From: a virus
Strand: one strand, 5' to 3'
IMG/VR virus record: IMGVR_UViG_3300007513_000010
Length of the DNA stretch: 64,000 bases
The position numbers and the translations under genes were made by a program. Positions 9,970-58,359 of this stretch are shown in pieces; position 1 is the stretch's first letter; every line of letters begins with the position of its first letter. The notes under the pieces were generated by a model. The model was not told the DNA's origin, did no database searches, and saw nothing but the letters and a program-made list of their open reading frames with translations.

Positions 9970-10743
9970 ATGGAAAAAATTAGCTTTTCTGAGCTTAAGA
10001 CGTGGAAAGAGTGCCCCTACAAGCACAAACTAACATATGTAGAGGGGAATAGGTTATTCCAGGGAAATATATATACAGCCTTCGGAACAGCAATTCATTC
10101 AGTTTGTGAGGAAATCATTGTAGATAATCGCAAGAATTCAAAAGAAATATTCTTGGCCTCTTACGAAAGGGAACTGGAAAACCTTCCAGACGATACTCGA
10201 CCCACCGATCAAGCAATTATAGATGAATTTAGAACACAGGGGTTGGGTTTGTGTGAACACATACTACCAGCTGTGAAGGAAGAGTTTAAAGAATACGAAG
10301 TTGTTTCAGTAGAAGAGCCGCTGTTTGAGCAAATAAATGACTTCGAAGCCTCCGGAAGAAATTTTAAGGGCTTTATTGATCTGGTCTTAAGAACTTCAGA
10401 TGGCAAGATTCACATAATTGATTGGAAATCTTGTAGTTGGGGCTGGAACATGAAAAAGAAATCAGACCCGATGGTTAATTACCAGTTAACTTTCTACAAA
10501 AAATTCTTTTCAGAAAAGCACAGTATTCCTCCGGAAGATATAGAAACGTATTTTGCTTTATTAAAGCGCACCGCCCGTGACAAAAAAGTAGAAATATTCC
10601 GGGTCACATCCGGGAAGAAGAAAACAAAAAACGCCCTTAATCTTTTGGAAATAGCTATTAAAAATATAGATAATAAAGTGTATATTAAGAATAGGCTTTC
10701 GTGTGAAAGGTGTGTGTTTTATAAAACTGAGTATTGTAAATGA
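9970..10743 (+). CDS. PD-(D/E)XK (RecB/Cas4-like) exonuclease
   Basis: ISFS..CP, FGTAIH, GFIDLV, IIDWKS, YQL..Y, and C-terminal CERC...C Fe-S ligands. Confidence 0.88.
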   Translation: MEKISFSELKTWKECPYKHKLTYVEGNRLFQGNIYTAFGTAIHSVCEEIIVDNRKNSKEIFLASYERELENLPDDTRPTDQAIIDEFRTQGLGLCEHILPAVKEEFKEYEVVSVEEPLFEQINDFEASGRNFKGFIDLVLRTSDGKIHIIDWKSCSWGWNMKKKSDPMVNYQLTFYKKFFSEKHSIPPEDIETYFALLKRTARDKKVEIFRVTSGKKKTKNALNLLEIAIKNIDNKVYIKNRLSCERCVFYKTEYCK

Positions 10744-11993
10744 GTAAAAAGAAAAAAGTACTAATATTGGCCGACTCTCCGTTTGCTCCATCCGGCATAG
10801 GGACCCAGACAAACTACATGATTAGAGGACTTCTAGCCACAGGGGAATATAGCTTTGTTTGTCTCGCCGGCGCCATAAAGCATGAGGACTACACCCCTAT
10901 AAAAACAGAAGAATACGGAGAAGACCTTATCGTGTATCCAGTAGATGGGTATGGTTCGCCAGAATTGGTTAGAAGTATGTTGGTCGTCCACCGGCCTGAT
11001 GTTGTGTGGTTTATGACAGATCCTAGATTTTGGGTATGGTTATGGCAAATGGAGAACGAGGTAAGAACGCATGTACCTATGGTATATTATCACGTTTGGG
11101 ATAACTACCCCTTTCCCAGGTATAATGCAATATATTATAATTCTAACGATTATGTTGTAGCAATCAGTAAATTGACAGAGGATATAGTCAGAAATACCTC
11201 TCCAGAAGTCCCTTTGGTTAGGATCCCTCACACTGTAGATACTAATGTTTTCCGCAAGATGCAGCCCCCGGAGTATGAGAAGTTTTATGATCAGGCCCCA
11301 TCTTTAAAAGATAAGCTTGTTTTTTTCTGGAATAATAGAAATGCTCGCAGGAAACAATCAGGAACTTTAATATGGTGGTTTAAGGAATATTTAGATATTG
11401 TTGGCAAAGATAAAGCAGTCTTGCTGATGCACACAGAACCAAAGGATGAACATGGCCAAGATTTAGAATCAATAATAGAGGAACTTGGAATAACAAACGG
11501 AGAGGTGATTCTTTCTACGAAAAAAATGTCAGCACAAGACTTGGCAAGGTTCTATAACATAGCTGATTGCACAATAAACATTTCAGATGCTGAGGGTTTT
11601 GGTCTTTCAACTTTAGAATCTTTATCTTGCGAAACACCAATAATTGTAAATATGACAGGCGGACTTCAAGAGCAAGTTACGGATGGTGAGCAGTTTTTTG
11701 GATACGGAATAGAGCCGGCCTCTAAAGCAGTTATAGGTTCTCAAACGGTGCCCTATATTTATGAAGATAGGATCTCAAAAGAAGACTTTTTGGATGTTAT
11801 GATAAAGTTTACAAATCTTACTGATGACGAGCGGGCTGCTTTGGGCACATCCGGCAGGAACCATGTTCTAAAAAATTATTCGATGTCGGGATACGTTAAT
11901 ATGTGGAACGCCCTTTTTAATGAAATTACATCTTCGTGTGGCTCTTGGGATACGAGGGTTGGATACAAACCGTGGAGTTTGGAGAAATTATGA
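10740..11993 (+). CDS. Glycosyltransferase, GT-B fold (GT4-like)
   Basis: EGFGLSTLESLSC (Ex7E), PHTVD, and NRNARRK. Confidence 0.9.
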   Translation: MSKKKKVLILADSPFAPSGIGTQTNYMIRGLLATGEYSFVCLAGAIKHEDYTPIKTEEYGEDLIVYPVDGYGSPELVRSMLVVHRPDVVWFMTDPRFWVWLWQMENEVRTHVPMVYYHVWDNYPFPRYNAIYYNSNDYVVAISKLTEDIVRNTSPEVPLVRIPHTVDTNVFRKMQPPEYEKFYDQAPSLKDKLVFFWNNRNARRKQSGTLIWWFKEYLDIVGKDKAVLLMHTEPKDEHGQDLESIIEELGITNGEVILSTKKMSAQDLARFYNIADCTINISDAEGFGLSTLESLSCETPIIVNMTGGLQEQVTDGEQFFGYGIEPASKAVIGSQTVPYIYEDRISKEDFLDVMIKFTNLTDDERAALGTSGRNHVLKNYSMSGYVNMWNALFNEITSSCGSWDTRVGYKPWSLEKL

Positions 11994-14038
11994 AAAAAGT
12001 TTTAGTTAAAGGGCCCGCTCTTAGTCGTTCGGGGTATGGCGAACAGACGAGATTTTTGTTGAAAAGCCTCAGAAGAATAGAATCAAAAATCGATATTTTA
12101 ATCATGAATATTTCTTGGGGTCACAGCGGGTGGATAACGGAAGCAGATGAAAATAGGAGCTGGATAGATCAAAAACTGCAAGAAACCCACAAATATTTAA
12201 CAGAAGGTGGACAAGTGGATGTCTCAATACAGGTCACCATTCCAAATGAATTTGAAAAAATAGCACCGGTAAACATTGGATATACCGCAGGGATAGAAGT
12301 CGACAGAGTAAGTCCAGAATGGATACAAAAATGCAATGAAATGGATAAAGTTATAGTAGTTTCAGATCATTCAAAGAAAGTTTTAGAGAAGACAAGATAT
12401 GAGATTTTAAAAAACGAACAACAGGTGGCAAATTTAGAGCTGTCGTCCCCGGTCGATTATGTGAACTATTGTGTAAGGTGTGTGGATCCTGATGATGAAT
12501 TTGAACTAAACCTAGAGACTGATTTCAATTTTTTGGCTGTAGCTCAAATAGGCCCCAGAAAGAACGTTCCGTTATTGCTCGAGTCATTCTTGGATGAGTT
12601 TAAGGATAACCCAAATGTGGGATTAGTTTTAAAAAGTCACTTTGCAAATTGTTCAAAATATGATCGCCATTATTGCAAAAAAGAACTTGGAGTCTTTCTG
12701 GAAAAACATGGAGACAGAAAATGCAAAGTTTATTTGCTGCATGGTGACATGTCTGAAAAAGAAATGTGTTCCCTATATAGGCATGACAAGATTAGCTCGA
12801 TGGTTTCGACAACTCATGGTGAGGGTTTTGGTCTCCCTTTGTTTGAGGCCGCCTGCAATGGCCTTCCAGTCATTGCCCCAAACTGGAGTGGACAAAGAGA
12901 TTTTCTAAATGCCCCGGTTCTGGAGAAGAAACGTAGTAAGTCTGGGAAAACAAAGACTTCAAAAAAGATTAAACCTTTATTTTGTGAAATACCGTTTACT
13001 CTAGAAGAGGTTGGACAAGAGGCCGTGTGGGATACTGTTATAAATAAAGACTCAAAATGGTGCACCGTAAAGGGGAATGATGTAAGAGGGGCAATGCGAA
13101 AGGTTTATAACAACCTTAAGACATATCAGGCTAAAGCAAACAAGTTGAAATCTCACATTTTAGAAAACTTTACTGAAGAGTTGTTGGCAAAAGAATTTTG
13201 TTTTAAACTTTTCGGGGAATCTGTCGAAAATCCGGCAGACAGGGTTTCGAAAGAAGAGATTCCAAAAATTTCATTAATTACTTCTGTGTTTAATGCAAAA
13301 GAGCATATTGAACAGCTCATGGAGGATGTGACAAGCCAGACCATATTTAAAGAAAAGTGCGAATGGGTAATATTGAATGCAAACCCAGAAGGTTCGGATG
13401 AGGAAGAAAAAGTAATACAAAAATATGTAAAAAAATTTCCAGAAAACATTATTTATCAAAGATTAGAGGCAGACCCTGGCATTTATGCAACTTGGAATTT
13501 GGCACTAAAAATGTCAACCGGAGAATTTATTACTAATATGAATTGTGACGATCGCCGCGCTCCAAATGCCTTAGAGCGTCAGGCAAAAACTTTAGTAGCA
13601 AATCCTGACGCCAGTCTTGTTTATAACGACAGCTATATTGTTCACGAGCCGAACATTAGCTGGGATACGCTACCACCAGATAGCAAGAAATATAATTTTG
13701 AAGAATTCTCGAAAGAATCCATGATAAGGGGTAACCAGCCGCACAACAATCCCATGTGGAAGAAGGATCTTCATGAAAAACATGGATATTTTAGAGAAGA
13801 TTACGGCTCAGCTTCAGATTGGGAATTTTGGCTTCGTTGTACTTTTGCGGGTGAGAGATTTATTAAATATCCCGAACCTTTGGGTATTTATTATTTTAAT
13901 CCGAAAGGGATTTCGACAGACCCCGAAAACAACAACTGGAAAAGAAAAGAAGAGAGAGAAATATTTAAAAAATATTTTGCAATTATGAAAGAAGAAAGAT
14001 CCAAACCCCCAGAAGAATCAACAGGCTTGGTTCTGTAG
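11990..14038 (+). CDS. Fused GT4-like + GT2 glycosyltransferase (start ATG 11990)
   Basis: N-half has SGYG, RKN and EGFGLPLFEAA; C-half has ISLITSVFN, NCDD and SDWEFWLR. Confidence 0.9.
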   Translation: MKKVLVKGPALSRSGYGEQTRFLLKSLRRIESKIDILIMNISWGHSGWITEADENRSWIDQKLQETHKYLTEGGQVDVSIQVTIPNEFEKIAPVNIGYTAGIEVDRVSPEWIQKCNEMDKVIVVSDHSKKVLEKTRYEILKNEQQVANLELSSPVDYVNYCVRCVDPDDEFELNLETDFNFLAVAQIGPRKNVPLLLESFLDEFKDNPNVGLVLKSHFANCSKYDRHYCKKELGVFLEKHGDRKCKVYLLHGDMSEKEMCSLYRHDKISSMVSTTHGEGFGLPLFEAACNGLPVIAPNWSGQRDFLNAPVLEKKRSKSGKTKTSKKIKPLFCEIPFTLEEVGQEAVWDTVINKDSKWCTVKGNDVRGAMRKVYNNLKTYQAKANKLKSHILENFTEELLAKEFCFKLFGESVENPADRVSKEEIPKISLITSVFNAKEHIEQLMEDVTSQTIFKEKCEWVILNANPEGSDEEEKVIQKYVKKFPENIIYQRLEADPGIYATWNLALKMSTGEFITNMNCDDRRAPNALERQAKTLVANPDASLVYNDSYIVHEPNISWDTLPPDSKKYNFEEFSKESMIRGNQPHNNPMWKKDLHEKHGYFREDYGSASDWEFWLRCTFAGERFIKYPEPLGIYYFNPKGISTDPENNNWKRKEEREIFKKYFAIMKEERSKPPEESTGLVL

Positions 14039-14039: not shown

Positions 14040-14873
14040 ATGATAAATTTATGCTCAGTTGTAACCAAGAATTGTCTAAATGAATTTCTTTTAACAAAGT
14101 TTTCTTGTGAGAAGTTCAATGAGTGTAAATGGTATATTTCTTGTGATCAAGTTTCGGCTGAAACCTTATCAAATTTTGCAAATGTAGAGATTTTTGTTTT
14201 TAAAGTTAATGACGAAATTTCTGATCATAATTCCTCGATACCATCCCGCCGCGCACAATTTTTGAATATTATTTTAAATAAATTTAAAACTCTAGAGCGA
14301 TGCCTGGAGAAAGAGCGGCATGCCATTTTTCTGGACAGTGATATGTTATTCGTGGGCTCAATAGATTTGAAGTCTGTGAATCTACTTAATGATAAGGAAA
14401 TTGATTTTATAGTTTCGCCTCATTATTCTCGTGACCCTATGAACGAAGATAAGCATGGGTTTTATAATGTCGGAATGTTTGGCTTGCATGATCCTGAAAA
14501 TCTTAAACAATGGAAATATTTGACTGAAAATTGCGACAAACTTGGGCTTTACTATGAACAGAAGCCTTTTGAGCTGATACTTAGTAATTTTAAATCGTTA
14601 AATCTTCCAATTAATAACAACATTGGATGGTGGAGGTTTAATAATGCTAGAACGAGCAATAGAATTAATCAATTAAAATTAGAAAATGAAAAAATAATGT
14701 TTGGTCAACTGCCCGCAACAAATTTTCATTTTCATGTCTTCAAGGCACCCAACGGATATAATCCGGGCTCTTTTCTTGTGGAAAGGGTTTTTGGTTTATT
14801 ATCAGAGTCTGACCTGCCAGAATACAAAGAGATATTGGAATATTATGAGACCTTATCAAAAGAAGTTATTTGA
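14040..14873 (+). CDS. GT-A fold glycosyltransferase (GT8-like)
   Basis: IFLDSDM (DxD), YNVGMF, and YEQ. Confidence 0.7.
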   Translation: MINLCSVVTKNCLNEFLLTKFSCEKFNECKWYISCDQVSAETLSNFANVEIFVFKVNDEISDHNSSIPSRRAQFLNIILNKFKTLERCLEKERHAIFLDSDMLFVGSIDLKSVNLLNDKEIDFIVSPHYSRDPMNEDKHGFYNVGMFGLHDPENLKQWKYLTENCDKLGLYYEQKPFELILSNFKSLNLPINNNIGWWRFNNARTSNRINQLKLENEKIMFGQLPATNFHFHVFKAPNGYNPGSFLVERVFGLLSESDLPEYKEILEYYETLSKEVI

Positions 14874-15747
14874 ATTATTTGAAGAGTTTTGCCCCAACCC
14901 ACAATGGCCAACATATCCTCCATATCATGTGGGTCCATATCTCGAACAATATTTTATAAATTACTATAAAAATAGTCCGTTAGAGAAGGGTAGGTATTTT
15001 ATTCCTATACATTGGAGTGGTTGTTATATTAACAATCGAGACCAGCCTCTGATAACACTACAAAAAACATTAGATTCTCTAGATCAAGAACTGCCCTATT
15101 TTACAGTCTCGACTCATGATGATGCACCTAGGGAATCTTTACCAAGAAATACGGTTTGCTATTCGGCGGGAGGAAACGCTGCAGGTACGCCAATACCTCT
15201 GATAGTTTCGGAAATACCGAAAGAATACAGGACCTCAGCAGAAAAGAAGATTTTAGCATCCTTTATAGGTTCAGCAAACACCCACCCCTTAAGAGTAAAG
15301 ATGTATCAGCAATTTTTTAATAATAGTGATTTTTATTTTTCTCAAAGAAGTTGGTCAGAAAAAGTATCAGAAGACCAATTTGAAAATTTTGTGAATTATA
15401 CAAAGAGTAGTTATTTTGGTTTAGCGCCTAGAGGGTATGGAAAAACGAGTTATAGGCTTTATGAAATAATGCAGTTGGGGTCGGTACCTGTTTATATCAG
15501 TGATGATTTTTGGTTACCATGGATCGGAGATTTTGACTGGGATAAGGCGATTATAAAATGCAAACCAGAAGATTTAGATATACTAGATTTAACTCTGCAA
15601 GACTGTTTGTATTCGGGAGAGTACGAAGATAAGCTACAGTATATAAGAGAATCTTACGATAAATATTTTACAATAGACTCGACAACAAAAAAGATCTTAA
15701 AGAAGGTAGAAAATGAAGAAATTAATGTTCGCCATAGCGGACTATAA
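14845..15747 (+). CDS. Exostosin-family (GT47) glycosyltransferase (start ATG 14845)
   Basis: ASFIGS, SYFGLAPRGYGKTSYRLYE...GSVPVYISD..LP. Confidence 0.85.
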   Translation: MRPYQKKLFELFEEFCPNPQWPTYPPYHVGPYLEQYFINYYKNSPLEKGRYFIPIHWSGCYINNRDQPLITLQKTLDSLDQELPYFTVSTHDDAPRESLPRNTVCYSAGGNAAGTPIPLIVSEIPKEYRTSAEKKILASFIGSANTHPLRVKMYQQFFNNSDFYFSQRSWSEKVSEDQFENFVNYTKSSYFGLAPRGYGKTSYRLYEIMQLGSVPVYISDDFWLPWIGDFDWDKAIIKCKPEDLDILDLTLQDCLYSGEYEDKLQYIRESYDKYFTIDSTTKKILKKVENEEINVRHSGL

Positions 15748-16477
15748 AGATGAGAGACAGGAAATATTTGAAAAGCACTTGTCTCCTAGAAATCAAGAGT
15801 ACTGTGATCACCATGGCTTTGAATATAAGGTTATAAAAAATGGTATAAAATATAGAGGGAATTACACTTGGCATAAAGTCTATGAAATTAAAAGAATGCT
15901 TGATGAAGGAGAATTGCAAGATGGAGACTGTGTCTGTAATATAGATGCAGATATGTGTATTGTTGACGGCCGTCACTCAATCTTTCCATCTGAAGGGAAA
16001 AGCTTCTCTTTGGCCATAGATAATGGAAATACTCATTGCTGGGGCTGGATTTCTTTACGAGTTAATGACTGGTCTAGAAATATGATAAATCAAATCGTGG
16101 ACGACGAGAGGTGGGAAAGGTTAAAAAGCACACCTCACGGCACAGATTTTCGGGAACAGGCTATGTGGTATTTTCTTTGCGGAATCATGCCCCATAGTTG
16201 GAATTCATTTTTAGAAATGCCAAATTACGGTTGGTATAGCGCTTATGATGAAAAGGAAACATATTATGAGATAGACGAATTGTACGAAAATGTAGAAATT
16301 CGAGGCCCGGAATGGAATACCACTCTCCTTTCAGAAGAGCAGGCAGACCCGGTAAGCAGGTGGTTACAACAGTACAACATTGTTAAGTCAAATAAGGAGG
16401 ATACAATTATTAGGCACTGGGCAGGCCGTCAGCCTTGGAATTATCAAGAATATTGCAAGGGCTCTATAGTAAAATGA
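15713..16477 (+). CDS. GT34-like (GMA12/MNN10-type) glycosyltransferase
   Basis: YCDHHGFEY, WHKV, IDAD, EQA, and IRHWAG. Confidence 0.7.
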   Translation: MKKLMFAIADYKDERQEIFEKHLSPRNQEYCDHHGFEYKVIKNGIKYRGNYTWHKVYEIKRMLDEGELQDGDCVCNIDADMCIVDGRHSIFPSEGKSFSLAIDNGNTHCWGWISLRVNDWSRNMINQIVDDERWERLKSTPHGTDFREQAMWYFLCGIMPHSWNSFLEMPNYGWYSAYDEKETYYEIDELYENVEIRGPEWNTTLLSEEQADPVSRWLQQYNIVKSNKEDTIIRHWAGRQPWNYQEYCKGSIVK

Positions 16478-17478
16478 GAATATTATTCGTAACTACCATG
16501 TCTGCTAAAAAACAGGGAGACCTACTTGAAGTTGGCATTTTGCATGGCCTTAGAAGTCTCTTGGGAAAGGATTGTATAGACTACCCAAGGAAGAAAATAA
16601 TGTATCATGATTGGTCAGAAACAAAAAAAGAAGATCTTCACGGTATGGGTTTTTCTTTGTTGACTGAGTCAATCAAGGACATATCTACAGTCGAAAGACA
16701 TGACATGAAGAACATTGACGTTGTTTTATATGGTAATGTCGGCCAGTATGATTATGGTGAATTGGAGTATATAAATAGTTTGGTTGCAAAACAAGATATA
16801 TGGTATTTAGACAGTCACGATCTTTACGGTTATGCTCCAAAAATGATAGAACACCCTTCAGAACTTGGAAAAGTTATAGGAATACAAAAGAAGCCATGTT
16901 TTAAAAGAGAACTGTTAACAAACCAGCAAGATGTGTACCCAACAGGCTTATGCATTCCTTCATCTAGAATTAGGAAATTCGACTTGCAACTGAAAGAGCA
17001 GTGGTTTCAGAAAACCGCTCCGGATGTCGCCCTGTTCCGCACTCAAGAGGATCTTGGGAACAGAAAAAATTACAAATTTGAAGATGAAGAAGAATACATG
17101 CAAGACCTTCAAAAGTCTTGGTTTGGTTTAACATGTAAGAGGGGCGGCTGGGATGCACTTAGACACTATGAAATTCTTGCTTCTGGGGCTCTTTTACTAT
17201 TTAGGGACTATGATGATAAACCCGCATGGTGTTCTCCACAAGATTTGCCATGCTATTCCTACTCTAGCAAACAGGAGCTGACATCTTTGGTGACTAGATT
17301 GGTAAACTTTAACAATGGGCTACCAACATCAGAATATATTAACATGCTAGAGGCTCAAAGAAGCTGGCTAAAAGAGTGTGGAACGACCATCGCGAGAGCG
17401 CGAAAAATAGTAGATTGCTTAAAAGAACACAAACAAAAAAAGAAGGAGAACAAAAAATGGAAAACAAACTTTATTTAG
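16474..17478 (+). CDS. Putative glycosyltransferase (start ATG 16474)
   Basis: FKRE and GGWDALRHYEILASG GT-B-like C-terminal motif; operon context. Confidence 0.6.
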   Translation: MRILFVTTMSAKKQGDLLEVGILHGLRSLLGKDCIDYPRKKIMYHDWSETKKEDLHGMGFSLLTESIKDISTVERHDMKNIDVVLYGNVGQYDYGELEYINSLVAKQDIWYLDSHDLYGYAPKMIEHPSELGKVIGIQKKPCFKRELLTNQQDVYPTGLCIPSSRIRKFDLQLKEQWFQKTAPDVALFRTQEDLGNRKNYKFEDEEEYMQDLQKSWFGLTCKRGGWDALRHYEILASGALLLFRDYDDKPAWCSPQDLPCYSYSSKQELTSLVTRLVNFNNGLPTSEYINMLEAQRSWLKECGTTIARARKIVDCLKEHKQKKKENKKWKTNFI

Positions 17479-18155
17479 ACTTGCTAAAAAAAAGCGTTTT
17501 AAATGTTATTTATGAGCCTTTAACTGACGGCCTGATAAACGGAACGGTTCACCCCGTTTTGGCACATACCATGATTGGCTTAAAAAGATTAAACAATATA
17601 CAGTTTTGTTATGAAAATATAATAAAAGACTCAATCCCAGGCGCCCTCATAGAGACAGGCGTCTGGCGCGGCGGCGCAACAATTTTCATGGCAGGTTTAG
17701 TAAAAGCACAAGGCGAAAAAAGAAAAGTATATGTGGCGGATTCTTTTTGCGGTTTGCCAAAGCCCAACGCTGAAAAGTATCCAGCAGATCTCGGAGACAT
17801 GCACTGGACATATCAGGATCTAAATGTTTCTTTAGAGGAAGTAATATCCAATTTCAAATCATACGACTTGTTATCACAAGATATTATCTTTTTGAAGGGC
17901 TGGTTTCAGGACACTATGCCAACTTTGCACGAAGAAACCTTCTCTTTAATCAGGTTGGACGGAGATATGTATGAATCTACTTGGGTCGCTTTGGAAAACT
18001 TATATCCTCGTCTTTCTGCTGGGGGATACCTGATAGTTGATGACTGGCTGTTGCCCGGAGCCCAAAAAGCTGTAGTAGATTATCGAAATAAGTTTGACAT
18101 ACAAGGGGAGATGTGCTATATTGATGGTTCTAGTATTTTTTGGAGAAAAGCTTGA
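17457..18155 (+). CDS. TylF/MycF-family sugar O-methyltransferase (start ATG 17457)
   Basis: TMIG..RL, ETGVWRGG, DSFCGLP, GWFQDT, RLDGDMYEST, and GGYLIVDD; AAGGAG SD. Confidence 0.92.
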   Translation: MENKLYLDLLKKSVLNVIYEPLTDGLINGTVHPVLAHTMIGLKRLNNIQFCYENIIKDSIPGALIETGVWRGGATIFMAGLVKAQGEKRKVYVADSFCGLPKPNAEKYPADLGDMHWTYQDLNVSLEEVISNFKSYDLLSQDIIFLKGWFQDTMPTLHEETFSLIRLDGDMYESTWVALENLYPRLSAGGYLIVDDWLLPGAQKAVVDYRNKFDIQGEMCYIDGSSIFWRKA

Positions 18156-18883
18156 AACTAAAAGATATAACAATATGCCTGCATTGTGGCTGCGATCGCA
18201 GTATCGTTTTTGCTCAGATGGAGGCCTTAGAACCTTTAGAGCAAAAGTATAATATTGCCTGGAATAATCGTATAGACAGATATCCATTTGCCTACCCTAG
18301 TTATTCTCGACTTATAAATCATTCGATAGCAACTTCGCCAACAGAGTTTGTAATTTTAATAAATGATCGGTGCTCTCCTAGTGTAACAGAAGTCGAGAAA
18401 ATAATAGAGCATTTAGAAAACGGATATGCCTGCTCTTTTATGTATAACGTTGGTTTTATGGGTTTTTCAAAGCAGTTAATAAGGAAAATTGGCTGGTGGG
18501 ATGAAAGATTTTTTAATGGTGGCTGGGAAGATAGGGATTGGGTATTTAGAATAAAACAAGCAGACTTGGCCTTATATGAAAGTCAAGAAGGAACTTATGA
18601 CTATTCTTGGAAGTCACCATTACAACAAAACGATAAATGTGCCCTCTCGGAACCCCACTTTAATAAGAAATGGTCTATAGGGTCTGATATGATTTTAAAA
18701 AAAGTTAAAGAAGATACTTATAGTGAATGGGATAAGACCTTAGGCGCCGCACGAAAAGACATAGAAAAAACTTGGCTACCTTGGTCATCTTCTATCTTGG
18801 GTGTAGATTACGACAGGCCAAATTCTGGTCCACCCGGCTCAGCATGGCTCGAAAATAAAAAAATTCAGGAGAACTACAGATGA
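18152..18883 (+). CDS. GT2-like glycosyltransferase
   Basis: IGWWDERF..GGWEDRDW motif; TTG 18152 overlaps the upstream stop and has a GGAG SD. Confidence 0.75.
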   Translation: MKLKDITICLHCGCDRSIVFAQMEALEPLEQKYNIAWNNRIDRYPFAYPSYSRLINHSIATSPTEFVILINDRCSPSVTEVEKIIEHLENGYACSFMYNVGFMGFSKQLIRKIGWWDERFFNGGWEDRDWVFRIKQADLALYESQEGTYDYSWKSPLQQNDKCALSEPHFNKKWSIGSDMILKKVKEDTYSEWDKTLGAARKDIEKTWLPWSSSILGVDYDRPNSGPPGSAWLENKKIQENYR

Positions 18884-51800: not shown

Positions 51801-54800
51801 TGGTGAGTTATTTTTTACTGGCGGTGCCAACCCTGGCTCTTATGATTATGACAACTTTGTGGTGTATCACCAGATCCCACAAAATGATATCCAGTACACT
51901 TGGATAACAGCATCCTCTACGGATACTATAAAAACTTTCAGAGGACACACTTCTAATTTTACTATCCCGTCATCTTCCGGCCACCAATACCCTGCAGAGA
52001 TTCAATTTTTGCAAAAGAGCGACCATGCAAGCTACTGGTGGATGGAGCCGAGCACATACTCTCGCATTTGGGGTATTGCCCCCGGATATGCCTCCGCCGA
52101 GGGTGAGAACCCCCCGGGCTATCAGCAACCCGTTTATACTGATTTTGTGGGAATGAATGCAAATATATATGAACCGGTGTCTTCTTCTATAAATACCTTA
52201 GGTTATTCATCTTTGGAATTTAGTGACACCGCCAAGGCCGGCCACACGGGCCTCTTTGTGAGTATAAATTACACAAATCAGACTTTTCTTGATGGTAATT
52301 TTGTTTATGGCGGCCAAACCTCACCCGGCGAAGAATCAAGAGTCTATGGGGTAGGCAGCCACGGATATGCTTGGGGCAATATGATCCTTAACGCACTAAT
52401 ACAACATCGACAGGGCCCTTATGGTTGGCCATCATGGAAACAGCTCCGCGGAGCATCTCATCCAATTATGAGAAGTCATAGAAAAAATAACCAATATTCT
52501 ATACATTTTCGAGAAGGGGTTCCTAGTACTTCGCCGATAGTGGACTACGAATACGATATATCACCCCGCGGTTCTAAAATAAAGGACAAATCAGCAAGAT
52601 ATTCTAGTAGGGTTGCAAAGAATTATTTTGATATTCCTGTTACATCCAAGTTTGATCCATTTGTAATGATGAATTTTTCGGACTCAACTCTTCGGTTCAT
52701 AGAAGACATGGGTTCGGGCACCGGTGATCAGGTGATGGAAAACGTTCTTTGGTGGCTTACTGATGTTAGCACAGTCTTTCAGCCTGATTCTCAAATGTTT
52801 GAGAATATGTATTTTGCAGTTCGAGACACATACACAAATGCGATATCTACTTTTTCAAATCCTGAAATTATTAGTGCTCTCAAGATAGATGAGGTGACAC
52901 ACCAGCCCATGGAATCAATGATGGCCGCTTATCAGGATGATAGCAGGGCAGACAAGCCAGACGCTTTTCATCAGATTAACTACCTTGAAGCAATATACCC
53001 AAGAGAGATCAACACATATACAAAGAATGCCAGAAATAGAGAGAATTTTGTTTTTCACTCTTGGAATTCTGATAGATCTAAGAGAGAAAACATTTTAATC
53101 GGAAGTGCAATATCGGCATATTCAGATAATTCTGTAATTTTTCCAAAAATTAGACCAGTTATAGAAAACTATACGGAAACAAATTCTCTTTTTGTGGACA
53201 CCTTAGATTACAAGAACTCCGGAGCGACGATAGTTCAATACATTACATCAAGTGCGTGGCTGCTTGATAGTCGTAAAGACTTTTCTAAAGAGCCCCTTTC
53301 TCTTACCGCATCATATACATCCACTAATGCTAGCTTTTTAGCAAATAGAGACCAGGGAGTCAGAGGCGAAGGGGAGCTACAAAATGATTATAGTATATTT
53401 GGCCTAGGTTATAATAGAATTCATGGAACCCCTCCTCCTGCTTTGGTGTATAATCGTCGCATTCCACAGCCGTACGGCACATATGGCGCCGACGGCTATG
53501 AGGAGTATTTAGCAGGGGAAAGCAAGTGGGAGGTGAACAAGGATAGTAGTTCTCCATTTTACGATAAATACACAGATTACAACGAAGAGATAAGATTAGT
53601 AGGGCAGAACTATTCTCTGGTCCCTGAATTCAAGATAAGTGACCACATAGAGACCATCGTCAAATTATCTGACCAAAGCACATCTCGAGAAGACTTTAAC
53701 ACGCCGCTAGAAACTTTGTTAAGCTTGACAGGAGGCGTCTACAATACTTCTCATGGAACTTTGGCAGTCGGTTCTAATTTTTATAAAACATATTCGACAT
53801 CAGATTTCTTAAAGTATTTCGGAACAATTCAAGACTCTTTCGAAGAATCAAATGCCCCTTTTGCCCCCGGGCGCCTCACACTAAAGTGCAAGGGTGTTAT
53901 GAAATTTTTGCCCTATAGGGGCTTTTATCCGGTCGAGAGAACAGCGCAGATAGGTGAAATTTTTACTAAATGTTACTTGCAAGACTATAGATATAAATCT
54001 TTAAACGGCTCAGACGTGAGTGATCATTTAGATAAAAAGATGTCAGGGTCTTTGCATCATGCTATAAAACCTCTCATGGCTCCTGGGGTTTTGTATAATT
54101 CGATCAAATCTGGGGTTGCAGTTGATTATCCTTTGTTTGAGAATGATATAAGGGGAACTAAGGCAATAGGGTTCATAAACATCAATCTTTTGGATGCTTC
54201 AAAGACAGCGTGGACCGCAAATTCAATTTCCTCTGCAGGGACATACCCAAAGATACAAATGGGACTATTAGAGGCGGATGGTACAACAACAACAAAGACA
54301 TTCCACTTCTTTTCGGATGCAGTAGACAACGCGAGTGAGTCAACTCACGTTAAATATGTTGATGTTGGCCAGCCTCCAGAACTTGCAGCTTCGCTTGACC
54401 GCAGGTCTGCATCTAGAAACACTCAGGTTGCTCGACAGCTTTCTGCTAAGCTGGTCGCCGCCGGCTTTGAAGTGGTGGATTTAAATTATTTAGTTGAGAC
54501 GGATTATTCTGTTATCAACACCGATGGGTCGATCTCATCAGGAACCAATCCACCAGACCGAATGCCCACTGCCTTGTGGTCAACTGGAGATCCTGACTTT
54601 AACATAGGCGTCATCCCCGACCCCGGTGAAGATAGTTCCGGCCGCGCGAAGGCCATGTACATTCCTGGTGTTGGGCTGGTTTCAGTGCCGGGAGTAGGGG
54701 GAGCTTGTATTGTTTTTCGGCAGCCTTATGTTGGTTCTTCTGGTAACGTTGCGCTGAGTGTGTCTGATGGTGTGCGAGATGGCTCTGGTCAAGAAGCAAG

Positions 54801-57537
54801 TAAAATTCATTTTTCTGCTAATCCCGGGCGCGGCGTCACTATATCGGGAGGTCATTCTATCAATATGCGCCTAGGGGCTGGAGGCTCCTCTGGCGTTGGG
54901 CCCGGGTTTCTAAGAGAATTATCTACATCGCCAACTTCCAATTCTAATTTACGCAGCTCTTTGGGTCAGTATTTTGCAGGAGGTGTTACTGGATCTTTTG
55001 TAAACAATACAAAAGATAAAGGCATTCCAAGAATTAAAGCAAAAGCCATAAAAAGAGTTTCTTTCGAGGATTTACTAGACGTGGAAGGTTTGTTGGGTAT
55101 TGATTTGCCAGATAACGAGCCCCATCCTTCGGCAAGTTTTATATACGGAAACCAGTACTGGTATAAGACTTTTGATTACCCTTTTAAGTTTGGTACCGCT
55201 AATGTTGAGCACTCAAGAGAGTCTTTAGGGTTGGGCGCTTTTAGTAGTTTAAGCGACTATACAACATATAAGATGGCAATTAATAATTTTACAGCAGAAA
55301 CTGTAAACTTTTTCCTAAAAGATCAAAAGCTAACATCTTTTAAATCTAAAAAAATAAATTTCATATCTCCACCTGGAGTTAGTTATAAGATGAGAGTCTA
55401 CCTTCACAATCAGGACTTGGTGATGTATGATCGTCATTCCGCTTTTGGGCCACCCGTCGATGCCGGAGATGTTGTTAAAGAGGTGCGAACCGCGACAAAT
55501 GCTCAAGTTGGCAACAAAGCCTCTGGTAATTTTACAGTAAGTATTACAGATTCAGGCGGCAGTAACCATTGGACTCTGGACGCGCAATTAAATTCAACTA
55601 GCAACGGTGGCAACGAGGGCAAGTATCCGGGTATTACGATACCGCTATACAGCGGCTCTTCATCGACCAATATAAGCTTTTTGTTTTATCATGACGCTGC
55701 CAATAGTATGGCAAGTAACAACACTAGTGTTAAATATTTTATTAACTTGGAAGATGGCAGCGGCCTAAAGACAAATATCGAAGTCGCAAAAGAACTGAGA
55801 ATAGCGCTATCTTCTGCAGGTTTTTTGGTTACTAATTCTGACGCTGCAAAAATAATATTTACACAACCTGTGCAAGGCTCAGGCGGCAACGCGACTTTGG
55901 TCTCTGTTGATGGCGGCATTGCTAGCAATGTAGAGGCAGATGGTGTGGTGAAGGGCCTGAATGATGGAGGGAGTCACGAGGGCTATGTTATCGCCGCCGG
56001 CTGGTCAAACCCTCAAGGGGGGTCCTCCGCATCCGGAGTGGAGTATTTTACTTCTGGCAAGCAGCTTTTTGAGGGGTCTCATGGTTTTGCCCCTTATGTG
56101 CCGCCATTTTTGGACCCTGGCGCAGATCCTTATGTTGAGTTCACTTTTAATACCACCAAAGAAGGAGAAAATCAAACATACTCTTATGATGATCTCATGA
56201 GCGGCATGACTTTAGAATATAGGAACTTTTACAACATAGAGGCCCAGACTTCTTCTGCGACAAACTTTCAGCACGCGATGTGCCTAAGTGCAAGTCTCGA
56301 CCTTAAGTCGGGCTATTTGGAGCCAACATTCGAAAGAGAGTATGAATCAGGTAACAACTTAACAAGAATTCCTGGTAATCTTAGGGTTGTTATACCCAAA
56401 GATTCTTCTTCAAAGCGCTGGGTAATACAATCAAAGTGGGAGACCCCGCTGCTGGATTTTGAAAATGTGCCGATGTCTGTTTTGGATTTATCAAATTCAA
56501 CAGTAAATACTGCAGTTACAGACTCTCCATGGAAAACAGAAAATTGGTTAACGTATTTGACGCACTCTGTAAATACGGCAACAACCTATTTGACCGCTTC
56601 TAGAGGAATGTGGCACCAAAGGGGCAAACTACCAGGTGAAAACAAGAAGGGATATTTCTTGTCGATCGCAGATGTTAAAAGATCTGACGGAGAATATCAC
56701 CCCTCTTTAGCGAAAGCTGTAGGATTTTTACCAGAAGATCAAAAAACAAGCACACTTCGTATGGGAGCCATCGCTGAAGAAAAAGAAATAAGTGAAGCGG
56801 TGGTTGCAATACCGTATTATTGTGATATACACGAAAATGTGCAATTTTTCAAACTCCAGGAAAAGCAAATTCAAGTAGCTGAAGAAGAAAATAGAAAAAT
56901 TTTTGAAATGCCGGAAGGAGAGGGAAGAGAGAGAAGATTGAAAGAAGTGCGAAATCCGATAGCATTTCAGATGAGAATGATGAAAAAATATATTTTTCCT
57001 CCTCAGTTTGATTTTGTGCAATTTCCAAAAAAGGTCAGAAAAAAGGAAGCAGTAGCTATGTACGTTTTTGAATTCAACGCGAAGCTAACAAAGGAAGATC
57101 TTAAGAATATTTGGGAGAATACGTCCCCGACCTCCGCAGAATCAACAGCGATGCCCCAGCATTCCAATTCGGGTCTACGCGCGGGATCCACAATGGATAC
57201 CCAATATGTTTCACATACACTGCATTCTTCTTTGGAAAACCCATTAGATCCTAGGTTTTTGAAAGAGGAGGTGCGATGGCTTGTTTTTAAAGTCAAATAC
57301 CGAGCAGAAAAAGACTATGCACAAGTAAAACTTAATTCATTATATCGTGGCATGGAAAATATGGACTTGATTTCTATGGACGCTTTGTCAGACTTGTCAA
57401 CTTATAACTTAACGAGAGATTTGCAAGATATCCACTATTCTTACAATTGGCCGTATGACTTCTTTTCTTTAGTAGAGCTAGTTAAAGTAGAGGCAAAGGT
57501 AGATTTTGTAACGGCTAGAGATCCAGGTAAACCATAA
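45856..57537 (+). CDS. Giant 3893-aa baseplate/tail protein with LamG (concanavalin A-like) domain(s) and repeated inserted modules
   Basis: LamG motifs TVEFWLK, KWHHYAF, FYVDG and GSLDDFRFW; KRKGT..S.R.LIRCFG baseplate-type motif; internal ~130-aa repeats. Confidence 0.8.
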   Translation: MSGKDQGGKTGGSKLGDFLNKEKSILNKSLEDISRDAESPKFIKSKSQSRSRFLPDIDYSQPSNFARFGSAERYYKDSIERIYKTYPYDGSKHEQEEWFLSSSHLDLYLFKKEYPHATGAVKFSHSGWGSKTGASQQSYGQPADKQYILFYGGPTKGDLYDTSLGRESCLKFTPTAGNTVEFWLKKGEYVNSLTEKEVIFDCYSKNAAGAADTARFKIELDSTVGSSASPFKLTYMSGNVGLNHVSVGTVSKSALVDNKWHHYAFSLVASGSVLKHDFYVDGVINEQGTSSIAPMGDSNRNMIATLGSLVTTVSSQAGLGWGKLSGSLDDFRFWKKYRNPKDVGRFYHDSVNGGTKNDHTNSSLGIYFKFNEGITGDYSQDSTILDYSGWAKNGAVVGYTSGFRTEESAIHESGATKWTEKGDPIMLPIHPKVDNMLSTFKTKGQAWDIENTNNLFNTFPSFMLEEDRGRLYELIQIMSSQFDEIYTLIEHLPKLKRKGFKDVNVSGSASIRTKANSEVHNKTYCDPDYQTENTGGRFEDPTKVKLIPDGRGIFGGADLFSSFLDRDDREQYDYSLLQIRDFFIQNLYNTATEINKRKGTEDSFRNLIRCFGIDDKIIKLNIYADNFEYKVDESQLHTVSKQKSLNCGVTDHFNATVHHNTGSASYTRNYIAGSTPTNSGQGITLEGNVIFPKVDSEASPYYVSKDFETISIFGMHKAELLTENLKVDYSNPASFQVQAVRDIVRPNDVHFRLTSSAGLITELTSSVYQEIYDNKPWNLSIRIKPNSESLFGTLTGSVDKNYTLEFSGYNYDLDSLSETFQLTASLSSAVANAVLAANKRVYMGAHRNNMTGSTREKTDLRFVSLSYWQDYLESAELQAHARDFGNIGRLGLYKNIDVNAGALDNYDIRKNDALALHWNFEMHTASSDTGVMDILDISSGSLDTIGAFGHYGNIVGYQHPGKVQFANIPSKAIMQEFLSVSKFSYLENIHSSDQVQILDLDRTTFKRNEKPITFFYSFEKSMYAAISEEILKYFAGLIEFNNLIGEPVNKYRSDYKGLRVLAQRFFEKSQGDLDYDRFVEFYRWVDDSISKFIDQIKPYSARFSKKILNVVESHTLERNKYDHKFPTIEMKLNDPIAPILGINELLYDWEHGHAPLTTTVSSGTLAAATGKITIMGSSASLLDGGTVTITNTAGLEKVYIFDDDGDGATGTVDGSGRVRVQISGFSKDAMATQLKNAINHDNGHGDTITITGPGLEWSDDGILNFTQATAGSAGNVTITSTVSSGYFDPEGFSGGTGGSTSSRSEKDKCLWWKDRADRRHDIPAAASVDKDRERQRVARNTHASGSTYVLRKLSRPYKFGVTMQTGFRSGQNRKTNKNDEFYKSVSKFGSTANITLPAVDIIEDTYCNDIIDPNYKERFRIKSYTVGVDGYYDRDSDYSLPFSLFSSSAGSSFPSTKAGLIVTNNHHDHYGDDHEIPLQGPFTEAHVGGMPHRHESLAGTLSQARATIQVDTGELGTTTLILKNSGGTTHTITAAALGASNPSTATKINTDLIGNANDATVQMKVSLDAANAAGNIKMNVSTITNNSDGNPRIITLTQFDTGGHGNTPIAGTMVSGNKVLVNSLDPDSAHGELFFTGGNRIERLEAYEVRSDANSITIHPVPASDPRSYYFRDGLAKRPVNIANIKYTTGSAILGNYDRDYQVVLTNGRSLNNNDFVDNEGFSFSGSASTFINEIIDTSKPARTKTEHVIVNRFSNAGPETAADSNGGYSVDVESGEFSAYNTINYKNMNARRILSRLHIEKSEQFGLRSGSLNTLLDYTLTSSLDGPTEIRPSMATSVHMQNRNPHYYLDLPVRATMTIMTDTGTLSTNSLTLKNSDGTTHTISAAALGGGNPSTATQVNTDIVGNANDAATQIRASLAAAATAGSIDMIVSAVTNNSAGDPRVITLTQNHPGTTGNTEVAGSLVSSNKLIINNITAGGSHGELFFTGGANPGSYDYDNFVVYHQIPQNDIQYTWITASSTDTIKTFRGHTSNFTIPSSSGHQYPAEIQFLQKSDHASYWWMEPSTYSRIWGIAPGYASAEGENPPGYQQPVYTDFVGMNANIYEPVSSSINTLGYSSLEFSDTAKAGHTGLFVSINYTNQTFLDGNFVYGGQTSPGEESRVYGVGSHGYAWGNMILNALIQHRQGPYGWPSWKQLRGASHPIMRSHRKNNQYSIHFREGVPSTSPIVDYEYDISPRGSKIKDKSARYSSRVAKNYFDIPVTSKFDPFVMMNFSDSTLRFIEDMGSGTGDQVMENVLWWLTDVSTVFQPDSQMFENMYFAVRDTYTNAISTFSNPEIISALKIDEVTHQPMESMMAAYQDDSRADKPDAFHQINYLEAIYPREINTYTKNARNRENFVFHSWNSDRSKRENILIGSAISAYSDNSVIFPKIRPVIENYTETNSLFVDTLDYKNSGATIVQYITSSAWLLDSRKDFSKEPLSLTASYTSTNASFLANRDQGVRGEGELQNDYSIFGLGYNRIHGTPPPALVYNRRIPQPYGTYGADGYEEYLAGESKWEVNKDSSSPFYDKYTDYNEEIRLVGQNYSLVPEFKISDHIETIVKLSDQSTSREDFNTPLETLLSLTGGVYNTSHGTLAVGSNFYKTYSTSDFLKYFGTIQDSFEESNAPFAPGRLTLKCKGVMKFLPYRGFYPVERTAQIGEIFTKCYLQDYRYKSLNGSDVSDHLDKKMSGSLHHAIKPLMAPGVLYNSIKSGVAVDYPLFENDIRGTKAIGFININLLDASKTAWTANSISSAGTYPKIQMGLLEADGTTTTKTFHFFSDAVDNASESTHVKYVDVGQPPELAASLDRRSASRNTQVARQLSAKLVAAGFEVVDLNYLVETDYSVINTDGSISSGTNPPDRMPTALWSTGDPDFNIGVIPDPGEDSSGRAKAMYIPGVGLVSVPGVGGACIVFRQPYVGSSGNVALSVSDGVRDGSGQEASKIHFSANPGRGVTISGGHSINMRLGAGGSSGVGPGFLRELSTSPTSNSNLRSSLGQYFAGGVTGSFVNNTKDKGIPRIKAKAIKRVSFEDLLDVEGLLGIDLPDNEPHPSASFIYGNQYWYKTFDYPFKFGTANVEHSRESLGLGAFSSLSDYTTYKMAINNFTAETVNFFLKDQKLTSFKSKKINFISPPGVSYKMRVYLHNQDLVMYDRHSAFGPPVDAGDVVKEVRTATNAQVGNKASGNFTVSITDSGGSNHWTLDAQLNSTSNGGNEGKYPGITIPLYSGSSSTNISFLFYHDAANSMASNNTSVKYFINLEDGSGLKTNIEVAKELRIALSSAGFLVTNSDAAKIIFTQPVQGSGGNATLVSVDGGIASNVEADGVVKGLNDGGSHEGYVIAAGWSNPQGGSSASGVEYFTSGKQLFEGSHGFAPYVPPFLDPGADPYVEFTFNTTKEGENQTYSYDDLMSGMTLEYRNFYNIEAQTSSATNFQHAMCLSASLDLKSGYLEPTFEREYESGNNLTRIPGNLRVVIPKDSSSKRWVIQSKWETPLLDFENVPMSVLDLSNSTVNTAVTDSPWKTENWLTYLTHSVNTATTYLTASRGMWHQRGKLPGENKKGYFLSIADVKRSDGEYHPSLAKAVGFLPEDQKTSTLRMGAIAEEKEISEAVVAIPYYCDIHENVQFFKLQEKQIQVAEEENRKIFEMPEGEGRERRLKEVRNPIAFQMRMMKKYIFPPQFDFVQFPKKVRKKEAVAMYVFEFNAKLTKEDLKNIWENTSPTSAESTAMPQHSNSGLRAGSTMDTQYVSHTLHSSLENPLDPRFLKEEVRWLVFKVKYRAEKDYAQVKLNSLYRGMENMDLISMDALSDLSTYNLTRDLQDIHYSYNWPYDFFSLVELVKVEAKVDFVTARDPGKP
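50362..51825 (+). repeat. Two diverged copies of a ~135-codon module (about 50362-50769 and 51412-51825)
   Basis: Both copies share LKNSxGTTHTI, AAALG, NPSTAT, GNANDA, PRxITLTQ and HGELFFTGG; about 60% aa identity by manual alignment. Confidence 0.9.
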
Positions 57538-58359
57538 ATGGCTTTTATTAACAAAAAAGAAGAAGTAATACAGATAAAGTTAACACAGTTTGGAAAAACG
57601 CAGCTAGCAAAGGGTCGATTCCGCCCACACTATTATGCTTTTTTTGATGACGACATTATTTATGATGCTTCCCACGCCGGAGTTGTGGAGGATCAGAACG
57701 ATATAATAACGAGAATTAAAGAGTCTCCTAGACTTGACCTACAACACGTAACAAAGGGAGTAGAGCTTAATTACTTGACTGGGTCAGATTTAATAGAAAA
57801 GGGAGAGAGAGACCTTTACGAGCCGCTAGATGAATTTCAAGAGACTGAAGAGAGGGATAGAATTCTAAATAGAATATTGGGATCCTCTCATCATGGCACC
57901 CAAGAGGCGCCCTATTATACTCTAGACGCTCTGGGGGGGGCGATTATAAAAAACGAAAACTTGCAAGTAACTTTTAGTACAGGTTCGGGAGAGTCTAAAA
58001 TACCACAAATAGAATTTAGGCCAGAGTATGTGATATTTAGCGATAATAGAAGAAAGAGGGATCCGATTCAGGATCTTGAAACCTTTGTAGACCTTTTATC
58101 TGAAAATATAGAATTTTTAGACGGAACGACACTTCACATAGAAAAGGAAGATCTTGTTCTTGGTCTAACAGAAAGTAACGCACCTTTCATAAAGGATACT
58201 TTTGAATATCAGCTTTATGAAATAAACAAAGAGCAGGGTGAAGAAAAGTTAGTCCCAATTGAGGACGACGGTCAGCTTTTCGAGATAAGGAAAGACAAAA
58301 AAATATCTAACTATGAAAAGCATAAAAAAGGGCTTGTTAAGGGCTTTTTCAACACATAG
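57538..58359 (+). CDS. Putative virion structural protein
   Basis: 273-aa ORF directly abutting the giant gene; N-terminal LTQFGK..LAKG.F...YYAFFDDDI.Y. Confidence 0.7.
   Translation: MAFINKKEEVIQIKLTQFGKTQLAKGRFRPHYYAFFDDDIIYDASHAGVVEDQNDIITRIKESPRLDLQHVTKGVELNYLTGSDLIEKGERDLYEPLDEFQETEERDRILNRILGSSHHGTQEAPYYTLDALGGAIIKNENLQVTFSTGSGESKIPQIEFRPEYVIFSDNRRKRDPIQDLETFVDLLSENIEFLDGTTLHIEKEDLVLGLTESNAPFIKDTFEYQLYEINKEQGEEKLVPIEDDGQLFEIRKDKKISNYEKHKKGLVKGFFNT

Follow-up and report, generated by a model that had tools for sequence, protein, structure and literature searches.

A conserved glycosyltransferase pair and a directional serine tripeptide in outer tail proteins: possible O-glycosylation of the tail in an aquatic T4-like phage lineage

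What does a phage glycosylate when it carries a whole island of sugar genes of its own? The question is raised by the window analyzed here, a 64,000-nucleotide stretch of the IMG/VR virus record IMGVR_UViG_3300007513_000010, a phage contig of about 40% GC in which the + strand carries all large open reading frames (ORFs). Coordinates are those of the window, and the features lie on its + strand unless stated otherwise. The glycan island begins with two adjacent glycosyltransferase (GT) genes, GT4a (10740..11993) and GT4b (11936..14038), continues with a variable sugar cassette (14040..25869; Pfam and NCBIfam family assignments), and is closed by a gp55-like late sigma factor gene (26615..27316; phrog_234, E 5.4e-5). 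This sigma factor, together with gp25 and gp6 baseplate homologues, assigns the phage to the T4-type myoviruses. An earlier sequence-only reading proposed that the island coats exposed parts of the phage's own virion and that a tripeptide, [ST][GAS]S, is the acceptor motif in selected tail proteins. Tail-protein O-glycosylation at this motif is, in our judgment, the best reading of the sequences, and we hold it tentatively.

The number of [ST][GAS]S tripeptides in each protein was compared with the number expected from 2000 composition-preserving shuffles. The 629-aa baseplate protein (43970..45859) contained 13 sites against 4.0 expected (z 4.5, p 0.001), exactly the count that the sequence-only reading had given as about 13. 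The 3893-aa giant baseplate-region protein (45856..57537) contained 42 against 18.0 expected (z 5.8; 0 of 2000 shuffles as high); the enrichment claimed earlier stood, and the rough figure of 30 was too low. The 3896-aa giant protein (29970..41660) provided a motif-poor internal contrast, its earlier "handful" amounting to 5 sites against 6.8 expected, and the gp25 and gp6 baseplate wedge homologues (41718..43968; PF04965, phrog_219/phrog_6) were motif-depleted. The 273-aa protein encoded downstream of the 3893-aa gene (57538..58359) had 2 motifs against 0.2 expected. The motif thus exceeded the shuffles in both the 629-aa and the 3893-aa proteins, and the z values were unchanged when shuffling stayed inside blocks of 30, 60, or 120 residues, so the excess is not due to local composition. 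In an unbiased scan of all tripeptides in the three motif-rich proteins of the window, TGS, SGS, and SAS ranked 1, 2, and 3 of the 191 with enough expected counts. Within the window alone, 24 T[GAS]S stood against 8 of the reverse S[GAS]T, each with an expectation of 8.8.

Other causes of the excess were considered. Permuted small-residue patterns were also raised, by 1.3- to 2.6-fold, so part of the signal is ordinary small-residue clustering; as the full cause, clustering holds only partly, since it explains neither the direction nor the residue specificity of the motif. Internal repeats were rejected because BLAST detected none inside the 3893-aa protein. BLAST also found no similarity between the 3893-aa and 629-aa proteins, and a shared "plug-in" module was rejected, as the insertion at about residues 190-300 of the 629-aa protein holds just 3 non-conserved sites.

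The excess was then a property of the lineage. The 629-aa protein has hundreds of metagenomic homologues, and all 120 of the 120 retrieved were enriched, with 1702 [ST][GAS]S observed against 513 expected and 813 [ST]GS observed against 138 expected. Eight of the 13 window sites (residues 48, 77, 131, 376, 442, 488, 574, and 587), plus one site that the window copy lacks, carried the motif in more than 75% of the homologues, and the tripeptide varied within its class at conserved sites, for example among SSS, TSS, SAS, and SGS at one of them. Across 80 related IMG/VR loci, the ratio of observed to expected motifs was 3.0x in the 3893-aa family (87 homologue ORFs), 3.6x in the 629-aa family, and 3.4x in the 273-aa family (14 homologues). 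It was 0.54x for gp6, 0.18x for gp25, 0.72x for the 3896-aa family, and 0.41x for a 534-aa neighbor, all depleted, and 1.18x for all remaining ORFs of these loci. When all tripeptides were scanned in the 3893-aa family, TGS, SGS, and TAS ranked 1, 2, and 3 of 3730; these same top-ranked tripeptides fell near the bottom in the gp6 and 3896-aa families. Eleven sites of the 3893-aa family recurred in 60% or more of 40 sequences, whereas many others come and go. Masking alignment columns conserved at 50%, 25%, and 10% left the remaining sites enriched by 2.4-2.5x, 1.9-2.1x, and 1.3-1.7x, respectively.

The motif has a direction. With TGS and SGT expected equally often, the 3893-aa family had 508 TGS and 167 SGT, and the 629-aa family 342 and 40. 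Relative to expectation, the 3893-aa family showed TGS at 4.8x versus SGT at 1.6x, TAS at 3.4x versus SAT at 1.3x, and TSS at 2.3x versus SST at 1.2x, and the 629-aa family showed TGS at 8.4x versus SGT at 1.0x. The ordinary turn formers TGN, TGD, and NGS were not enriched. At the conserved sites, position 1 was Ser or Thr in 84-94%; position 2 was Gly in 44-52%, Ser in 24%, and Ala in 20%; and position 3 was Ser in 89-90% and Thr in just 1.4-2.2%, the non-motif residues there being chiefly the turn formers Ala, Asn, Gly, and Pro. Hydrophobic residues flanked the motif, making up 44-55% of the residues before it and 47-49% of those after it against a background of 31%. In an extended chain, the two hydroxyl residues would face away from these hydrophobic flanks.

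The location of the motif was determined on predicted structures and across the virion. The AlphaFold2 model of the 629-aa protein (pLDDT, the predicted local distance difference test score, 83.5) is a chain of beta-sandwich domains in which, judged by secondary structure only, the motif sites lie mostly at loop-to-strand junctions in well-ordered parts; a fold search with this model gave only generic matches of low TM (template modeling) score to multi-domain Ig-like proteins. In a model of residues 735-1005 of the 3893-aa protein (48058-48870; pLDDT 76.7), seven sites fell in loops or at strand ends, and Foldseek found no fold match in the PDB for this alpha/beta segment. The sequence-only reading had expected surface turns. 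The models are consistent with this as far as loops and strand starts are concerned, as is the outer sheath described below, with the reservation that the models give placement in secondary structure and not solvent exposure.

In a complete relative of 191 kb with terminal repeats, the motif excess was concentrated in eight ORFs. These included an enlarged tail sheath (13 motifs vs. 4.8 expected), a 1381-aa fiber beside the neck gene (34 vs. 8.8), a gp13-like neck protein, two proteins of about 350 aa without assignment, and baseplate homologues; the rest of the genome had 78 motifs against 100.6 expected. Homologues of the major capsid protein, portal, terminase, and prohead protease showed no motif enrichment. 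Two gp23 homologues had 2 motifs against 1.6 expected and 3 against 1.7, so by motif content the capsid is not a target. In T4 gp18, the C-terminal part forms the inner sheath core, and the remaining domains protrude. All 13 of 13 sites in the sheath homologue of the 191-kb relative, and all 10 of 10 in that of Flavobacterium phage immuto, lay outside the C-terminal core that aligns with T4 gp18, a placement with a chance of about 0.003 for each homologue by a simple binomial. The motif excess is confined to outer tail parts, namely the baseplate periphery, the neck, the fiber, and the outer half of the sheath.

The enzymes that might read such a motif stand at the head of the island. GT4a (PF00534, E 1.5e-12) is a retaining-type GT-B glycosyltransferase of 417 aa, and GT4b is fused to a GT2 domain (PF00534 at residues 188-324, PF00535 at residues 446-596); the PF00534 scores of 47.8 bits for GT4a and 35.1 bits for GT4b exceed the curated cut-off of 26.4 and identify both as GT4-type. 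The E-x7-E motif was intact in 8 of 8 aligned GT4a orthologues; in the GT4b rows inspected, it was intact in the window and in immuto and missing in Rhodothermus phage RM378. Of the long related contigs, 9 of 10 carried a GT4a orthologue of 55-63% identity, as did 18 of 20 of medium size, and in the three contigs without one, the expected position was at or past the contig end. Homologues of about 30% identity were found in the phages immuto, Mel-JY01, and RM378. In one relative (contig G011 of locus L009, 22288-23506), two ORFs of 135 aa and 297 aa take the place of an intact GT4a orthologue, which points to a natural pseudogene or to a fault in the assembly. As a natural knock-out it was uninformative, since its giant tail protein, with 7.8 motifs per 1000 aa, was at the low end and no lower than that of a contig with an intact gene.

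The gene order around the pair was examined in five relatives. All had PIN-PhoH, a protein without assignment, a PD-(D/E)XK nuclease, GT4a (55-62% identity), GT4b (43-47%), a cassette of 9-15 genes, and the sigma factor (56-67%), with the GT4b-GT2 fusion of the window represented by two separate genes of about 420 aa and 540 aa. The nuclease (in the window 9970..10743; PF12705, E 4e-20; start/stop overlap with GT4a) was upstream of GT4a in 5 of 5 relatives and also in immuto. The order nuclease-GT4a-GT4b survives deep divergence, at about 30% identity between the window lineage, immuto, and RM378 (window, 9970-14038; locus L099, 10801-14720; locus L108, 5045-8726). The gene preceding the GT pair in RM378 is annotated "similar to DNA polymerase I", and that in the window lineage and immuto is PD-(D/E)XK.

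A model of the GT4a-GT4b complex scored 0.82, and the best control scored 0.21. In a benchmark, 58 of 80 solved complexes scored at least this high, as did 2 of 110 mismatched pairs, figures that hold only roughly here, where our own six-row alignments were used. Contact agreement between runs was at least 98%, and the pLDDT of the partners was at least 87. The conserved C-terminal tail of GT4a (residues 411-417) is predicted to add a strand to GT4b (residues about 247-255; window 10740-13255). The model suggests that GT4a and GT4b may form an obligate two-subunit enzyme, although the prediction may reflect likeness to solved GT-B pairs. GT4a also scored on the Pfam "GT4-conflict" model PF20706 (E 4e-8), and its second-best PDB sequence match was the chlorovirus GT4 protein B736L (PDB 3oy2, E 3e-7).

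The enzyme list of the sequence-only reading was largely borne out by Pfam and NCBIfam. GT4 (10740-11993), the GT4+GT2 fusion (11936-14038), a GT47/exostosin (14701-15747), a TylF-type O-methyltransferase (17376-18155), and four SDR epimerases/dehydratases, including Gmd (24871-25869), were confirmed, together with an HddA-like GHMP kinase, a SIS isomerase, and a HAD-nucleotidyltransferase that make up a heptose-type route. The GT34 and GT8 enzymes listed before had no significant family match; five ORFs of the locus were without a significant family and gave only sub-threshold hints of GT-A or GT-B. The fucose/heptose/O-methyl glycan proposed earlier would agree with the Gmd, heptose-type, and O-methyltransferase families, from which alone its composition is deduced, and the cassette of each relative differs. 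The window cassette had a few SDR/Gmd-type, GT2, and GT47 genes in common with the cassettes of the five relatives and was otherwise unrelated to them; the relatives' cassettes contained GT2s, SDRs, DegT aminotransferases, UDP-GlcNAc 2-epimerases, NeuB, WbqC, C- and O-methyltransferases, and dioxygenases. Two of 54 cassette proteins of relatives (L084-L088) are surprising for a phage sugar island: one matched the catalytic domain of the RuBisCO large chain (E 4e-32), the other that of glutamine synthetase (E 2.5e-15).

Compared with a Wzx/Wzy- or ABC-dependent surface-polysaccharide locus, the island has the sugar-nucleotide genes and several transferases and lacks the membrane and export components. 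None of 16 locus proteins and none of 56 cassette proteins from the five relatives had a transmembrane segment in a Kyte-Doolittle scan, and in six versions of the island we found neither an initiating phosphoglycosyl transferase nor a flippase, polymerase, ligase, or ABC exporter. A host-surface polymer would be possible only through host initiation and export, because the island has no membrane component. Virion proteins would be the obvious acceptor in the cytoplasm, and the motif-rich set coincides with the outward-facing tail parts.

To relate the motif to the GT pair, cultured relatives and control phages were compared. At the DNA level, the baseplate region of the window had no blastn match among cultured phages, nor did the 629-aa protein have a tblastn match among them. 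The closest relatives of gp6, at 29-31% identity, were Microcystis phage Mel-JY01, Flavobacterium phage immuto, and an uncultured 484-kb phage; RM378, which carries a GT4a homologue, was named by Roux et al. in connection with Far-T4 morphology (PMC4360716). Phage immuto has the nuclease, two GTs, and then a cassette of its own. Its motif excess lies in nine tail-region ORFs, where TGS:SGT was 33:10, compared with 20:34 elsewhere in the genome. In RM378, TGS:SGT was 24:7 genome-wide. The controls without a GT4a homologue were HTVC008M and P-SSM2, and T4 was absent among the GT4a matches in the cultured-phage collection. T4 virion proteins had 26 [ST][GAS]S against 28.3 expected and 3 [ST]GS against 9.3, and TGS:SGT was 20:42 in HTVC008M and 50:67 in P-SSM2. 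Three deep branches with the GT pair, the window lineage, immuto, and RM378, were thus all TGS-biased, and motif enrichment accompanied both GT4 genes in every lineage examined. A Ser-rich excess is not unique to the lineage, because HTVC008M and P-SSM2 show a symmetric one; the directional bias is unique. The excess without direction (TGS about equal to SGT) was located at 37918-43920 and 33435-36482 in HTVC008M and at 18953-20743 in P-SSM2, and it is a useful baseline for sequon claims in phage tails.

Several observations weigh against tail-protein O-glycosylation at the motif. The tripeptide could be structural, a small-residue turn, a bulge, or a cap at the start of a strand that is typical of this lineage's tail-decoration domains, with the island aimed elsewhere, likeliest at host envelope glycans built at the cytoplasmic face and exported by host machinery for superinfection exclusion or for receptor masking on debris; we regard this as a serious rival, nearly as probable as the preferred reading. 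At least 60% of homologues, at about 34-45% identity, keep nine sites in the 629-aa family and 11 in the 3893-aa family, and these sites sit in ordered, confidently modeled regions and at loop-to-strand junctions, as a structural turn or bulge motif would. The turn formers found in place of Ser at position 3 point the same way, and the near absence of Thr there would fit a steric constraint as well as a Ser-specific enzyme. In the neck-region fiber of the 191-kb relative, the motif belongs to a periodic beta-helix-type repeat, and giant tail proteins of HTVC008M and P-SSM2 have a 2-2.7x excess of Ser-rich tripeptides without the GT pair. As for the island, its hypervariable cassettes resemble the diversity of O-antigens and capsules, and the best NCBIfam matches of the transferases, all sub-threshold, are cell-envelope and small-molecule enzymes (BshA, EpsE, and TuaG). 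The position beside the late sigma factor and tail genes, stressed in the sequence-only reading, holds in the window lineage but does not extend to immuto and RM378, whose GT pair sits among replication and lysis genes by the nuclease, away from the tail genes; RM378 has the pair with no cassette. The co-occurrence is a single evolutionary observation, because the motif and the GT pair were inherited within one deep lineage, and no independent gain or loss of either was found among the lineages examined. However, a generic structural motif should recur in the tails of T4, HTVC008M, and P-SSM2, where TGS is not favored over SGT. The motif also spans unrelated sequences and folds (sheath outer domains, beta-sandwich chains, an alpha/beta segment, and a beta-helix), its variable sites remain enriched once conserved columns are masked, and an envelope glycan is at odds with six island versions that hold no membrane, initiation, or export protein.

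Virion glycosylation by the island in any form has, in our estimate, close to an even chance. It would include the case in which the island glycosylates virion proteins at other sites, for example unstructured Ser/Thr-rich stretches, and the tripeptide is an unrelated structural signature. The arguments for a cytoplasmic, non-DNA acceptor apply equally to this case, and the accessible portions of the mycobacteriophage reports describe no short sequon; on the other hand, no alternative acceptor pattern was seen, and the motif-rich set is exactly the set of outward-facing tail parts, which makes it improbable. Still less probable is that the motif has nothing to do with the island and serves another modification or recognition event, for example as a phosphorylation or acylation site or as a signal for a chaperone or for assembly. 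Hydroxyl specificity, direction, and protein selectivity would fit any enzyme-read motif, but no conserved kinase or other writer was found by the tail genes of the window, and the GT pair is the sole lineage-wide modifying enzyme identified. Glycosylation of the phage DNA against restriction, with the adjacent nuclease removing unmodified host DNA, is the reading to which we give the least weight of all. A nuclease gene does stand directly ahead of the GT pair in immuto and the window lineage, and perhaps also in RM378, GT4a scores on the "GT4-conflict" model, and phage GT clusters that put diverse glycans, heptose included, on DNA are documented (bioRxiv 10.1101/2023.12.21.572611; PMC13326640). 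The known routes to glycosyl-DNA need a ThyA-family enzyme, or a methyltransferase plus TET (PMC13326640; bioRxiv 10.1101/2023.12.21.572611). Among ten long relatives, two of them complete, a ThyA-family hydroxymethylase/hydroxylase (PF00303) was found in none, TET (PF12851) in none by a search without a positive control, and a C5-methyltransferase (PF00145) in one. The DNA of immuto, which has the same nuclease-GT-GT-cassette order, contained dA, dC, dT, and fdPreQ1 only by liquid chromatography with ultraviolet and mass spectrometric detection, with no glycosylated nucleoside reported (bioRxiv 10.1101/2023.04.13.536721). Sugars on DNA, which the sequence-only reading had named as a finding that would contradict it, were therefore not seen in the published nucleoside analysis of a relative with the same GT pair. 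DNA is an unlikely acceptor because the acceptor-base enzymes were not found in the relatives and no sugar is reported on immuto DNA.

Tail-protein O-glycosylation at the motif remains our preferred reading; every computational test that the sequence-only reading had named as able to contradict it was run, and none did so. The acceptor role proposed for the tripeptide is partly supported, its link to the transferases resting on co-inheritance in one lineage. The sequences show the motif excess, its conservation and its distribution over the virion, the gene content, and the absence of export genes and of DNA-acceptor pathways; from these we infer that the transferases act on proteins, that the motif is their acceptor, and what the sugars are. 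In the mechanism we propose, the phage would encode a cytoplasmic glycosylation system in which the GT4a/GT4b pair, probably heterodimeric, starts the glycan, and the soluble sugar-nucleotide enzymes of a swappable cassette, along with its additional transferases and methyltransferases, would diversify it. The likeliest acceptors would be its own outer tail proteins (baseplate periphery, neck, fibers, and outer sheath domains), modified before or during tail assembly. The O-glycosylated Ser/Thr would be marked by the pattern hydrophobic-[Ser/Thr]-[Gly/Ala/Ser]-Ser-hydrophobic, which mostly lies where a loop passes into a strand. The full proposal is slightly more doubtful than its central part: that a heterodimeric GT4 enzyme recognizes hydrophobic-[ST]-[GAS]-S-hydrophobic as a directional sequon in folded proteins of the outer tail and starts a cassette-varied glycan coat across an aquatic Far-T4-type lineage that includes the cultured phages immuto, RM378, and Mel-JY01.

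Other features of the window were recorded alongside. Searches of Pfam, PHROG, and a protein atlas with the 3896-aa and 3893-aa giant proteins found no family, and PDB sequence searches with the profile of the 629-aa family and with gp6 gave nothing usable. A block upstream of the island (4611-8634) encodes a PP-loop ATPase (ATP_bind_3, E 9e-32), a ClpP-like protease, and the PIN-PhoH fusion, which was conserved in 5 of 5 relatives examined; its minus strand encodes a trypsin-like peptidase that has a single hydrophobic segment. The octamer ACTATTTA occurs at 138, 705, 2455, and 41693, in intergenic gaps directly upstream of virion-type genes, for example 18 nt ahead of gp25; the total of 6 copies against 3.4 expected is not above chance. 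No ACTATTTA precedes the glycan operon, whose sole gap (8634-8905) has sigma-70-like hexamers, and promoter scans around the glycan island were uninformative.

Phage virion glycosylation has so far been documented only for a few mycobacteriophages. The lineage studied here is described as abundant, globally distributed, and aquatic, in both marine and freshwater settings. If the proposal is true, these phages would O-glycosylate proteins autonomously, at a sequon, and specifically on the tail, and a self-made, strain-variable tail glycan would change views on the adsorption, host range, stability, grazing, and decay of marine viruses. It would also explain a large class of "LPS-like" (lipopolysaccharide-like) auxiliary genes in aquatic phages and would offer a compact cytoplasmic Ser-directed O-glycosylation tag and enzyme pair for glyco-engineering. 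The claim is testable now because immuto, a cultured phage, shares both the gene pair and the motif excess.

Several known systems resemble the island in part. Phage DNA glycosylation, by the T4 alpha- and beta-glucosyltransferases, in the arabinosyl-5-hydroxycytosine pathway of RB69 and DLP3 (PMC13326640), and in the methyltransferase/TET-dependent glycans (bioRxiv 10.1101/2023.12.21.572611), likewise uses soluble GT-B enzymes, sometimes with sugar-nucleotide genes, including those for heptose, near nucleases or structural genes of T4-like or metagenomic phages. These systems need acceptor-base enzymes, which were not found in the relatives of the window. T4-like cyanophages such as P-SSM2 carry LPS/O-antigen-like gene clusters. 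Like the phage studied here, the marine T4-like phage P-SSM2 devotes a long stretch to sugar-nucleotide and transferase genes, but it has neither a GT4a homologue nor a bias of TGS over SGT, whereas the present island opens with a constant pair of genes and keeps to one genomic slot. Chloroviruses glycosylate their capsid with cytoplasmic, virus-encoded machinery independent of host export (PMC4691112). Their glycans are N-linked to the capsid protein of a eukaryotic virus, and the sequence match between GT4a and B736L is only at the generic GT4 level.

The nearest mechanistic analogue of the GT4a/GT4b pair is GtfA-GtfB, likewise two adjacent GT-B/GT4-type proteins. In streptococci and staphylococci, the GtfA-GtfB complex adds O-GlcNAc in the cytoplasm to Ser-x-Ser-type patterns of serine-rich-repeat adhesins, and the glycans are then extended by GT2/GT8-type enzymes. 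GT4a and GT4b do not belong to that family: the NCBIfam models of GtfA and GtfB did not match them, the one faint match was to SdgA (E 2e-4), and GT4a, at 417 aa, has no room for the DUF1975-type extra domain of the GtfA/GtfB system. GtfB is non-catalytic, whereas GT4b keeps E-x7-E in the window and immuto. The acceptors also differ, being dispersed single tripeptides in folded domains here and long low-complexity repeats in the case of GtfA/GtfB.

The closest precedent among phages is that of the mycobacteriophages Che8 and Rita, for which the accessible part of the report describes glycans on virion proteins (PMC11256854). As proposed here, phage GTs and methyltransferases of mycobacteriophages would, according to the available portions of these accounts, coat the phage's own structural proteins in the cytoplasm with no export machinery (PMC11256854; PMC12582341). 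With at least four GT domains and no transmembrane protein found, the island shares with the Che8 type the presence of phage-encoded GTs without export machinery. The mycobacteriophages are actinobacterial siphoviruses, whereas the phages here are aquatic T4-like myoviruses. The directional tripeptide, the predicted GT4 heterodimer, and the swappable cassette are features of the present lineage and are not described for the mycobacteriophage system in the portions of its literature available to us. In those same portions, the glycans are reported on the major capsid protein, whereas here the capsid, portal, and tube-side proteins are motif-poor, and the candidate acceptors are the outer tail parts.

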